NCBI GenBank assembly: GCA_001778495.1 | Contig: MFHE01000006.1 | Coordinates: 1-53,086, forward strand | Source of the DNA: Candidatus Giovannonibacteria bacterium RIFCSPHIGHO2_01_FULL_45_24 | Lineage (GTDB): Bacteria > Patescibacteriota > Minisyncoccia > UBA11713 > 2-01-FULL-45-33 | DNA: 53,086 nucleotides | Direction: 5' to 3' | Shown: one piece after another, positions 33,801-36,800 of the stretch | How positions within the stretch are numbered: position 1 is the first letter of the stretch | How the letters are laid out: the number at the start of each line of letters is the position of its first letter | Translations under genes and position numbers: made by a program | The notes under the pieces: model-generated | Database searches by the model: none | What the model was told of the DNA's origin: nothing | Seen by the model: only the letters and a program-made list of their open reading frames with translations

Positions 33801-36800
33801 GAGGACTTTTATCGCAGGACAATTCAAACCTCTTTTGGGATGATACGAATAACAGACTCGGCATCGGGACGACGAGCCCGTGGGGGCTTCTTTCGGTAAA
33901 TCCCAACGGCATCGCCGGTCCCGCGTTCGTGGTCGGCTCTTCAACCAAGTGCGTTACCGGGGACACCAAGCTTAAACGCCGCCGCAAGAGACGCCGCAAA
34001 AACGGCAAAGGCGAGTGGGAAGAGGAAGAATATTTTGAAGATACGCGGATTGATGAGATTAAAGAAGGAGACGAAATCCTCACGCTGGACGAAAAAACCG
34101 GCAAGCTTAAGGTCTCCCGCGTCAACAAACTTATGGATATGGGCGTTAAAGAAATCTACACTCTGACCACCGCCACCGGCAAAAAAATCCGCACCACCGC
34201 TAACCATCCTTATCTTCTCGCGCCGGAATTTCCGAAAGAGCGCGTCGCGATATTCATTGACGGGGCGAATGTAGAAGCAAGTTTGCGGCATATGAGCGCG
34301 AGGATTGACTACCAAGAGCTTCTTTCGGCGTTCGGCGGGAAAGAAGCGGTTTCGCGCGCGGGATTTTATAAAGTTGATTTCCAGCACAAAGGACAAGGCC
34401 AATTCTTTACCCGGCTCAAGAAACTTGGCTATCGGCTTATTACTAAACCCCTTAAAATCATTGAACAGCGCCATCTCGCCGACGAGCATAAGGGAAATTT
34501 TGACGTTGAGATCGCCGTTGACGCCGTAGAGCGCAAAAACGCTTTTGATACTGCGGTGCTCTTCTCCGGCGATTCGGATTTTGCTTATCTTGCCGAGCGG
34601 CTCCAGCAAAATGGTAAACGTTTATTAGTTATTGCTCCTTATCGGGCCACCGGCAGAGAGCTGCGCAAACAGGCGGACGTGTTTTTAAGCCTCGCCGATA
34701 TGCCCTTCGTTGATTTCGGAGCAACTAAAAAAGCCCCGCAAAGGGGGCATCACAACCGGCTTTCACCGGCACTTCCCATCCTAGCGCAGGCGCATCCCTA
34801 TGTCAACGGGGGGGTGTGGACAAAGGTTTCCGAAATTAAGGAAGGGCAGATGATTGCGACTTCCGGCGCGAACGGCAAACCGGTCTTTGAAAGAATTATG
34901 TCAATTGAAAAAACCGCCGCCGAGCAGGTCTACGACATAGAAGTGGAAGGCACGCACAATTTCATCGGCAACGACATCGTGGCGCACAATACCTATCTCA
35001 CTGTAACCAACGGCGGCAACGTCGGCATCGGGACGACAAATCCCGGGGCAAATCTGGATGTAGATGTGCCGTCAGGTCAAGGTACTATAAGATTGAGTGA
35101 TACTAACGTTAATGTTATTAAATTATCGGACGCTTCCAGTGGTGCTACTACAAACGGGATAATATCAGTATATTCAGGTGGAACTGAAAATATCAAATTG
35201 TTTGCTAGTAGTAATGATTCATCTTGGATTAATGCTGGCAACGTCGGCATCGGGACGACGAGTCCGGCGACAAGATTGTCAGTGCAGGGAAATGGTTTGT
35301 TTTCAGGAAACCTTACAATCGCCGGGCTGACCGCTACCGGAACGGCTTCGTTCAATGCTGACGCAAGAACAAGCGGCTCATCGGCCCTTTGGAGTTTTGC
35401 CGGAGGAGCAGACACCGGTCTTACGGCTTCCACCGAGGCCACTGACGCGCAATTCAATCTGGCCAGAACAAAAACCCACGCCAACGGAACAATCACGCTT
35501 CAGCGGGACGCGTTAATCAATGCCGCGACCCATGCTTTCACCAATTTCGCTTCAGGCAACATAACCGACCTCGCGACTCTCGGGATTACCGGAGCTCCTT
35601 TGGCGGGAACTAATGCCACAACCACCAACGCCCATACCATATATCTGGGCGCCTCTGCCCTTAACGCCTCCACCACCAATTCATACGGCCTTACGGTCAA
35701 CGCCAACACGGGAGCGACAAACAATTATGCCGCGGCTTTTCTTGGCGGCAACGTCGGAATAGGGACGACCTCACCTTGGGGGCTTCTTTCCGTAAATCCC
35801 AACGGCATCACCGGCCCGGCGTTCGTGGTCGGGTCTTCAACCCAGTGCGTTACTGGGGACACTCGCCTTCGTCGAAGACGAAGGAAATCCAAAGGCAAAA
35901 GCTCAAATGCCAAATCAAGCTCAAAGTTCAAAATCCAAAAATTGGGAGAAGACGAGGAATTCATCTATGAAGAAGTCGCGATTGTGGATGTCCAGTCCGG
36001 AGACGAAATCGCCTCCTTGGACGAGACAACCGGAAAAATTGTCTGGTCAAAAGTGAGAGCGCTTATGCATATGGGCCGAAAACCGATTATTGAGCTGGAA
36101 ACGGCGCTCGGCAGGAAAATCAGGACAACGGAAAATCATCCTTATTTTGTTCGCGAACGCGCGTCGGAACCGATTCGAGCGGTGGCGTTTATTGATTACG
36201 CGAATATAAAATCATGGCTTATTGATAAAAAGCTGCGGATTGATCTCGATTTGCTCCACAGGGAGCTAAAAACCTCCGGTGTAAAAGAAGTCAGGTTTTA
36301 CTACGGTTCTGACGAGCTGGGCAAAAATACCTCTTTTTTCGCGGCACTGCGCCGAATGGGCTACGCAGTTATCACCAAGCCAGTTCAGTACTTTGCAGTA
36401 CGGCTTTTGGATATTTTACAAAAGTCTCGGAATCGTCGATGGCTTGATGCGCTTTCACAAAATATCCGCGAGACGCTTCTTAAAGAGTCGAGCCAACTTG
36501 ATACTAAAGGCATTCGCTTGTTTGAGCCGAAAGCAAACTTTGACGTTGAGATTGCGGCAGACGCGCTGGAAATGGCTAATTCTTTTGATGCTGTTTTGCT
36601 TTTCTCCGGCGACGGGGATTTTGCGGATCTCGCGCGACGCCTTTCTGCCAAAGGCAAACAGGTAATCGTAATTTCCGGCAGGAAGTTCATGTCAGGGGTT
36701 TTGATGGGCGAAGCGGACGGGTTTGTGTTTATGGAGCAATTGGCAAAAATGATCCCCGGCCTGGTTTCTTCAGGTGAAAAGGCAAAACCTGCCTTGCGGC

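Follow-up and report, generated by a model that had tools for sequence, protein, structure and literature searches.

The subject of this analysis is a small antisense unit located within an intein of Candidatus Giovannonibacteria bacterium RIFCSPHIGHO2_01_FULL_45_24, a member of the Patescibacteriota. The stretch of DNA analysed, referred to below as the window, comprises 53,086 nucleotides (nt) of contig MFHE01000006.1 (assembly GCA_001778495.1, positions 1 to 53,086). It contains an open reading frame (ORF) of 2778 amino acids (aa) at 30866-39202 (plus strand), which encodes a repetitive protein of surface type whose C-terminal domains are Peptidase_S74 and Ig-like (Pfam). This host gene is interrupted by two Hint/intein elements, each of which carries a NYN (PF01936) nuclease domain in the place usually taken by a homing endonuclease, and opposite the linker that follows each NYN domain there is a predicted promoter with hairpin and T-run.

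Two inteins with NYN domains and antisense units

Both inteins are inserted at a repeated host site of the form ...GSST(K/Q)↓C...HN↓TYLTV (arrows, intein boundaries). Intein 1 (347 aa, 33950-34990, plus strand) starts with Cys1 (CVTGDT), contains the TxxH block (RTTANHPY) and ends with VAHN followed by Thr at position +1. Its boundaries were set by these motifs; it matched the Pfam profile Intein_splicing with an E-value of 1.9e-38 and was aligned with 8 homologues. Having Cys1, the TxxH block, the C-terminal His-Asn, a +1 nucleophile and a frame open throughout, intein 1 is predicted to be a class 1 intein. Its NYN domain (34241-34702, plus strand, residues 1126-1276, translated in frame) was recognized by Pfam with an E-value of 4.6e-50 and 170.3 bits against a cut-off of 24.2, and by the PADLOC NYN model with 5e-16. 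The acidic residues D104, D185, D208 and D210 as well as N107 are invariant across 9 aligned inteins, and the predicted catalytic residues of the NYN domains of these inteins are intact. The C-terminal splicing block (GGVWTKV) begins at 34808 (plus strand). Intein 2 (397 aa, 35846-37036, plus strand), a paralogue 46% identical to intein 1, likewise starts with CVTGDT and ends with VAHN then Thr, and its NYN domain lies at about 36176-36742 (plus strand).

The antisense unit of intein 1 (34727-34806) coincides with the linker that leads from the NYN domain to the C-terminal splicing block, and this linker is in frame in the 2778-aa ORF. An earlier note on this DNA had pointed here to minus-strand TTGACA-17-TAGGAT, a hairpin with a GAAA loop, a GC hairpin and T6, and direct reading confirmed each of these elements. 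The -35 hexamer TTGACA (34806-34801, minus strand; the sense strand reads tat GTC AAc, Y-V-N) is separated by 17 nt from the -10 hexamer TAGGAT (34783-34778, minus strand), which is identical in the homologous loci L006, L034 and L067. The promoter scored 10 of 12 in a consensus scan, and its hexamers and spacing are of the sigma-70 type. The predicted antisense RNA (34772-34727, minus strand), starting about 6-7 nt past the -10 hexamer and ending within T6, would be ~46 nt long, in agreement with the ~45 nt that the note had given for a unit kept in frame inside a protein. It has two hairpins and folds with -19.5 kcal/mol. The first hairpin, GCCGGT-GAAA-GCCGGT (34770-34755, minus strand), has a GNRA tetraloop and is kept in L006, L022 and L023, where its closing U.G becomes C-G. 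The second, GCCCC-CTTTGC-GGGGC (34748-34733), is followed by T6 (34732-34727), and the whole element (34748-34727, minus strand), with 5 G-C pairs, a loop of 6 and a TTTTTT tail, has the make-up of an intrinsic terminator. On the sense strand T6 corresponds to the Lys-Lys codons AAA AAA.

A similar unit (36851-36777, minus strand) was found at the equivalent linker position in intein 2. It consists of TTGACA (36851-36846), a 16-nt spacer, TGc-TACAAT (36829-36824), the hairpin CCTGCC-GCAA-GGCAGG (36803-36788) and the T-run TTTTGCCTTTT (36787-36777). With its TG extension this promoter scored 11 of 12 and is the best site in the region, and the predicted RNA of about 41 nt folds with -18.5 kcal/mol. 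The linker around this unit otherwise aligns poorly with that of intein 1. When intein 1 was compared with its four nearest relatives, DNA identity was 0.67 in the 80-nt unit vs 0.53 in the NYN domain. Promoter-like sites in the 10-kb region numbered 19 vs 7.7 expected, and terminator-like sites 21 vs 16.2 expected. Of the sequencing runs in which this sequence occurs, 9 are of DNA type and none is of RNA. Rfam 15 gave no match at E <= 10 in 33800-37200 and none at E <= 1 in 12 related loci.

Conservation of the antisense promoter across the intein family

Homologous loci, denoted by L-numbers (G000 is the source genome), were obtained from a scan of species-representative genomes, which gave 16 loci, and from a metagenome scan, of which the best 80 of 300 confirmed relatives were used; the named records are nearly all metagenome-assembled genomes of Patescibacteria/Candidate Phyla Radiation. 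A motif search yielded 56 complete inteins, and after 3 identical in DNA had been dropped, 53 distinct inteins remained, including the two of the window. The regular expression missed incomplete and atypical inteins, and L009 and L020 were read by eye alone.

The strict promoter pattern, TTGACA-N16-18-TAnnnT, was present on the antisense strand of 47 of the 53 inteins but never on the sense strand (0 of 53), and 33 of 2650 dinucleotide shuffles contained it; since the homologues are mutually related, these and the following counts and p-values overstate independence. TTGACA hexamers occurred 69 times on the minus strand and 12 times on the plus strand. Most strict sites lie 167-221 nt from the C-terminal end of the intein, directly ahead of the C-terminal block. 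Among distinct NYN inteins the strict pattern was found in 24 of 27, the others being L029 (TTGACA-17-TATAAA), L032_2 (TTGACA-17-TATAAG) and L035 (TTGACG-17-TACAAT). The linker of every NYN intein (27/27) thus has a -35 hexamer TTGAC[AG], and in 26 of 27 it is a perfect TTGACA. Three members of the family, L087, L090 and L096, had no promoter in the strict scan.

We asked how the hexamer is read on the coding strand. Its complement TGTCAA stands in the register xTG TCA Axx (L/V-S-x) in 33 cases and in the register xxT GTC AAx (x-V-K/N) in 16, and never in the third. As two codon registers are in use for one and the same hexamer, the constraint acts on DNA and not on protein. This bears on the possibility that the motifs are chance, or codons of a conserved linker peptide (KKAP..., ...LSS/YVN-GG), and that nothing is transcribed. 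Such a reading can point to the T-run, which is a pair of Lys codons, to the K-K-[AP]-P-like motif that recurs past NYN, and to a z-score of just -1.0 for the fold of the single sequence; against it, the two registers encode different peptides, and strict sites are as rare in shuffles as given above and absent from the sense strand.

The pattern was also examined in the 531-kb genome, for which the gene map was crude and ORF-based. Among 43 strict sites, 31 fell in intergenic DNA, which makes up 9% of the genome, many of them with a TGn extension, 9 lay within ORFs in sense and 3 within ORFs in antisense, and two of these 3 are the two intein sites. From this distribution the strict pattern is predicted to mark real promoters in this genome. 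The third antisense intragenic site, at C14:75627, is close to a contig end. Strict sites in the genome often have an extended -10, TGCTAnnnT (e.g. C6:14846, C2:5639 and C14:33062).

Some side observations concern the inteins themselves. All 53 share one conserved site (...L.V.GQ↓C...HN↓TY[LI].G...) in repetitive giant surface proteins, not in an essential enzyme, and in the window gene two such sites are filled by paralogues merely 46% identical. NYN inteins with a long linker, L014 (2001-3254) and also L012, L025, L031 and L033, have 2-3 non-identical antisense TTGACA units in tandem, each with its own hairpin and T-run. When four DNA contig runs were compared with the window, many joints were obtained, located in the host-gene repeats. 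In one run 33946 was joined to 34990 by two intervening letters, a jump across almost exactly intein 1; this could reflect an allele without the intein or a paralogous repeat, which are not separable at 90% likeness in a repeat-rich gene.

Terminator and RNA-level constraint

A terminator was scored when a hairpin of at most -7 kcal/mol ended at a T-run within 130 nt of the -10 hexamer. This was the case in 26 of 27 NYN inteins vs 147 of 540 random start points. The sole miss, L011, has ACCCGCC-GCGA-GGCGGGT followed by TTGGCTTTTC. The predicted RNAs of the NYN inteins are 32-81 nt long, with a median of about 40 nt. The earlier note had set beforehand, as a test of its claim, whether the unit is conserved beside homologous NYN genes, and the presence of promoter and terminator in 26 of 27 NYN inteins answers in its favour.

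The helices were compared in one NYN clade of 9 sequences, which includes a NYN-deleted mini-intein. There the helix is 95.7% paired, and 4 of 8 pairs are changed on both sides; the observed covariation score was reached by 0 of 500 column shuffles, and shifting the partner by one column lowered pairing to 56-61%. Four-base loops in the minus-strand folds (n = 26) included 12 GNRA and 4 UNCG loops and no complement of either. Of the two strands, the minus strand gave the stabler fold for 28 of 36 RNAs (Wilcoxon p = 6e-4). By these measures of fold and covariation the putative terminator is selected as minus-strand RNA.

The same observations speak against the chance or peptide reading: the stems change by compensatory pairs as the peptide changes, and both the tetraloops and the G.U pairs point to the minus strand. 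Outside coding sequence, too, the unit is found past free-standing NYN genes (below). We therefore regard that reading as highly implausible. The unit of intein 1 is unremarkable when taken alone, and it lies far beyond chance because of the comparison with its relatives. The antisense pattern in 47 of 53 inteins, with no sense counterpart, argues that the complete antisense transcription unit described by the earlier note is real and selected, and it is very probable that 34806-34727 is a genuine antisense transcription unit under selection.

Free-standing NYN genes with a convergent unit

The phylum was searched in 401 genomes, and NYN was found in 238 of them. PADLOC includes NYN models among its defence candidates. 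For the count of convergent units we used the 30 best NYN loci together with L073, L101 and L102, and scored a site when TTGAC[AT]-N16-18-TAnnnT occurred on the opposite strand within -93..+200 of the stop codon; NYN ORFs of at most 203 aa were called short. L117, L123, L129 and L131 (no flank or frame) and L119 (the window itself) were left out, and two rows (L102, 130 aa, and L101, 353 aa) are overlapping frames mislabelled NYN. A convergent site was detected in 10 of 14 short free-standing NYN ORFs, in 0 of 14 long-form NYNs and in 0 of 69 other frames of at least 120 aa at the same loci. In the ten short genes the predicted hairpin RNA abuts or overlaps the 3' end of the NYN gene, so that the conservation which the note had set as a test extends to NYN genes outside inteins. 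The 3' flanks concerned are those of L073, L101, L102, L103, L104, L105, L106, L110, L115 and L063. L131 has an extended -10, a hairpin and a T-run at a contig end.

Three of these loci, L073 (about 1684-1830), L101 and L102, have TTGACA-16-TAnnnT on the opposite strand directly past the stop codon. Their first hairpin has a 7-bp stem, which is wholly different in sequence yet complementary in each, and a UAUG or UACG loop. They share a conserved A-rich spacer, which when read on the plus strand supplies the U-tract for the terminator of the NYN gene itself, and the T-run of the terminator hairpin abuts the stop codon, so that a bidirectional terminator is shared with the NYN gene. In L063, L106 and L115 the RNA overlaps the last NYN codons.

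The genome analysed here has two free-standing NYN genes of its own (L004 and L005), located at window positions 14949-15341 and at G000:C14:71746-72210, which are 31-35% identical to the intein NYN. An ORF of 121 aa in the same orientation begins 47 nt past one of them.

A maximum likelihood tree was built from 59 NYN domains (L107, L119 and L129 left out; root arbitrary). The intein NYNs fall in at least 4 clades and are interleaved with free-standing RNA-bearing NYNs, and the RNA-less NYNs form a separate clade of 19 rows (support 94/65). Given the starred branches, the label 'intein' must have changed at least twice. The earlier note had proposed that the unit was captured together with NYN. 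The interleaving fits this proposal; the direction, capture or release, is not given by an arbitrary root. Taken as a whole, NYN and the convergent small RNA gene constitute a predicted two-part module that occurs both inside inteins and free-standing in Patescibacteria.

Other cargo behind the same promoter

The promoter is not restricted to NYN inteins but is a family-wide feature, present also in members without NYN, so that the unit is not NYN-specific and the interpretation of the earlier note is in this respect not supported. Eight of the members without NYN have two antisense ORFs past the promoter, all on the minus strand: L015 (2331-2992), L020 (367-869), L057 (1411-2099), L062 (1519-2033), L070 (1450-2076), L074 (331-934), L075 (1540-2051) and L092 (1483-2088). 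The ATG of the first ORF lies 8 nt past the -10 hexamer in L015, L020, L057 and L074, and 28-32 nt past it in L062, L070, L075 and L092, positions that fit transcription start at the antisense promoter. L070, L074 and L092 encode a DUF433 protein (E-values 1.8e-19 to 3.2e-24) followed by a DUF5615/PIN-like protein (1.1e-8 to 1.4e-22). In the others a small protein without assignment comes first, and the second ORF is ParE_toxin-like in L057 (26.3 bits against a 23-bit cut-off) and, with a weaker score of 18.6-22.3 bits over the full profile length, in L015, L020 and L075; L062 gave no hit.

These operons are of the toxin-antitoxin (TA) type, and their presence in sibling inteins lends indirect support to the TA idea of the earlier note. 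In the seven complete inteins that carry them (L015, L057, L062, L070, L074, L075 and L092; L020, truncated at its N-terminal end, was omitted) the sense frame has 0 stops across the operons vs 12-54 in the other two frames, and protein-coding overlap on both strands is predicted over about 600-700 nt. Still other inteins have sense-encoded insert domains, in L008 (303-1265)/L052 (1201-2211) and in L054/L055/L089, each facing an antisense RNA that is conserved and 80-95 nt long. Neither domain A (L052) nor domain B (L055) matched an entry of Pfam, PADLOC or NCBIfam.

The occurrence of TA operons bears on a further alternative, in which the antisense promoter is a leftover cargo promoter capped by a terminator and the RNA is a functionless by-product. 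A sense NYN would then have replaced an ancestral antisense cargo, and the terminator would be selected merely to shield NYN and the host gene. It is in keeping with this that the RNAs often consist of little besides a 9-16-nt leader and the terminator hairpin, and that relatives use the same promoter for protein-coding cargo. If it served no purpose, however, the promoter would be expected to decay, and 26 of 27 NYN inteins, whose proteins are no more than 30-60% identical, have TTGACA without a mismatch; free-standing NYN genes hold the same unit, some inteins (L014; also L012, L025, L031 and L033) hold two or three of them, and the first hairpin of the free-standing RNAs covaries though it is not the terminator. 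We consider that the unit is improbable as a mere remnant of this kind.

Mini-inteins of the family are deletion derivatives (L080/L083, 197 aa; L095, 222 aa; L016/L061, 260 aa; L077, L091 and L065); L095 seems to have retained the antisense RNA that faces the insert domains just described. In the 260-aa mini-intein L016 (2001-2780, identical to L061) an 11-bp acceptor-like stem and a T-arm-like hairpin were seen on the minus strand upstream of the promoter. ARAGORN detected no tRNA or tmRNA in 12 loci, which leaves the tRNA-like stem of L016 unconfirmed.

A possible role of the NYN domain and its RNA

The reading that we prefer is that NYN and the small RNA make up a module of two parts in which the RNA is antidote or regulator, and that the intein carries this module as addiction cargo; we hold it to be slightly short of an even chance. 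The intein family has no homing endonuclease, and its insert region would instead hold a cargo transcribed from the conserved antisense promoter, either a protein TA operon or a small RNA set against a nuclease domain that is translated in frame. The antisense unit would have been laid in frame through an intein linker that is otherwise unconstrained, and its RNA would be the antidote or negative regulator of the NYN nuclease, whose toxicity is likewise putative. Two routes of action may be envisaged, and both are possible. In a route like that of type I TA systems, the RNA would pair with the host mRNA, to which it is fully complementary, in the part that separates NYN from the C-terminal splicing block, and RNase III, which is encoded in this genome, would cleave the duplex, leaving a truncated product without the splicing block. 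In a route like that of type III systems, the RNA would bind or occupy the nuclease. On loss of the intein DNA the short-lived RNA would be gone while the nuclease persisted, which would make the intein addictive. Every NYN intein has the promoter, and the NYN-deleted derivatives L080/L083 keep the RNA gene, a pattern that fits the asymmetry between toxin and antidote. The unit sits where sibling inteins express TA operons and is tied to one branch of NYN nucleases, inside and outside inteins. Addiction cargo, with the small RNA standing in for the antitoxin in the NYN version, seems the most economical reading.

Several points weigh against this proposal, in addition to the relatedness of the homologues noted above. 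The 71-nt fold of the intein 1 unit is unexceptional when considered alone (z -1.0; 29 of 200 shuffles fold equally well), and transcription of the unit is a prediction from sequence alone. NYN is common in the phylum and many NYN genes have no RNA; no convergent unit was found in the flanks of the two free-standing NYN genes of this genome, and the toxicity of NYN is an assumption. The RNAs are very short and share no common sequence across NYN clades beyond a terminator-type hairpin, which leaves a small surface for a specific protein-RNA complex. The duplexes of 10 free-standing RNAs with the -60..+30 region of their own NYN genes had energies of z -0.9 to +1.5 relative to mononucleotide shuffles, and a trans-acting antisense effect on the NYN 5' region was rejected. 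Finally, the promoter belongs to the scaffold whatever the cargo class, being carried by 23 of 26 non-NYN inteins, and mini-inteins of 197-265 aa without a nuclease domain keep promoter, hairpin and T-run, so that the RNA cannot serve solely to counter NYN.

These last facts are what would be expected if the antisense promoter were a part of the intein scaffold, not specific to NYN, and if the RNA or the polymerase acted in cis on the host gene, throttling or timing the giant precursor by mRNA pairing or transcriptional interference whatever the cargo. The distance of the promoter to the C-terminal block is the same in every cargo class, the RNA is by construction fully complementary to the host mRNA, and the RNAs have little conserved sequence. 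Left unexplained by an action in cis are the convergent units of 10 of 14 short free-standing NYN genes, where there is no intein or giant host gene, and the TA operons expressed from the same promoter in other members; the terminator right past the promoter also limits interference of the collision type. We judge it unlikely, if less so than a functionless remnant. The probability left beyond the readings named here belongs to roles that we have not considered.

A role as guide RNA for homing was also tried as a candidate and rejected. For 26 intein RNAs, each compared with 40 + 40 nt of extein sequence at its own empty site, the longest exact match was 0-8 nt, which is within the shuffled range.

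The addiction-cargo proposal can be widened, more tentatively still. The Patescibacterial intein family may have swapped its homing endonuclease for addiction cargo, either TA operons or an RNA antidote of 30-80 nt against NYN, and NYN with its RNA may represent a novel class of RNA-antitoxin modules, which combines types I and III and passes between a free-standing and an intein-embedded state. Inteins are thought to persist through homing endonucleases or through location at essential sites. An intein family in repetitive surface proteins with TA-type cargo suggests persistence by addiction, and these, if the proposal is true, would be the first inteins maintained by post-segregational killing. 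The units may also provide a clear example from nature of dual constraint, in which an ORF is overlapped on the opposite strand by a functional RNA gene or, in relatives, by whole protein genes. The pairing of NYN with a small RNA gives a testable function to a nuclease family present in over half of the sampled Patescibacteria genomes (238/401), and the units make up a set of compact predicted promoters and terminators from an uncultured phylum.

Comparison with known systems

A literature search, covering titles and the openings of abstracts, returned no description there of inteins with NYN, an antisense promoter or TA cargo, or of a module of NYN and small RNA. The elements were compared with known systems that resemble them in part. 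Like canonical LAGLIDADG and HNH inteins, those of the window have a nuclease-fold domain between the N- and C-terminal Hint blocks and the predicted class 1 splicing residues. They differ in that the insert is a NYN domain, which is PIN-like and typically a ribonuclease, and in the conserved antisense promoter, with TA operons in other members. Type II systems of the ParDE/RelE-like and DUF433-DUF5615 (PIN-like) kinds are carried by sibling inteins under the same promoter, in the order antitoxin then toxin. The window, in contrast, has no protein antitoxin or antisense ORF, and the RNA stands in the place of the operon.

A CRISPR-associated NYN ribonuclease that processes CRISPR RNA is reported in a preprint (bioRxiv 10.1101/2024.04.08.588522). 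As in that report, a NYN nuclease is found here alongside a small hairpin RNA. The present locus differs in having no CRISPR array or cas context and a single RNA unit with its own promoter.

In type III systems, which comprise ToxIN and its relatives, the antitoxin consists of tandem RNA repeats located upstream of the toxin on the same strand. The likeness to these systems lies in the combination of an endoribonuclease-fold protein with a small structured RNA and no protein antitoxin, and in the RNA gene terminator that adjoins the toxin gene. Unlike them, the window has no tandem repeat array (no dedicated repeat search was made); a single unit lies downstream on the opposite strand, convergent and antisense to NYN, and NYN is unrelated to ToxN. 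The analogy with type III systems drawn by the earlier note is not supported in these two features of repeats and orientation.

Type I pairs with a convergent antisense RNA that overlaps the 3' end of the toxin gene are known from Bacillus, namely txpA/RatA and bsrG/SR4. The present arrangement is similar in geometry only: a small RNA gene with its own predicted promoter converges on the 3' end of the toxin candidate and is complementary to its transcript. The shared or overlapping terminator in L073, L101 and L102 and the presence of RNase III in the genome are further points of likeness. RalR/RalA is reported as a type I pair with a nuclease toxin (PMC4041452), and the toxin candidate here is, like RalR, a nuclease. 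Unlike the usual type I toxin, a small (<60 aa) hydrophobic membrane peptide whose own translation start is repressed by the RNA, the candidate is a soluble NYN domain of ~150 aa. It is translated inside the intein in a 2778-aa protein and so has no mRNA, start codon or ribosome-binding site of its own; the RNA gene lies in frame within coding sequence, and no pairing to NYN 5' regions was found. The NYN-RNA module is thus closest to type I systems with convergent RNAs and nuclease toxins and less like type III systems, and since it lacks a defining feature of each, it should be counted as a member of neither.

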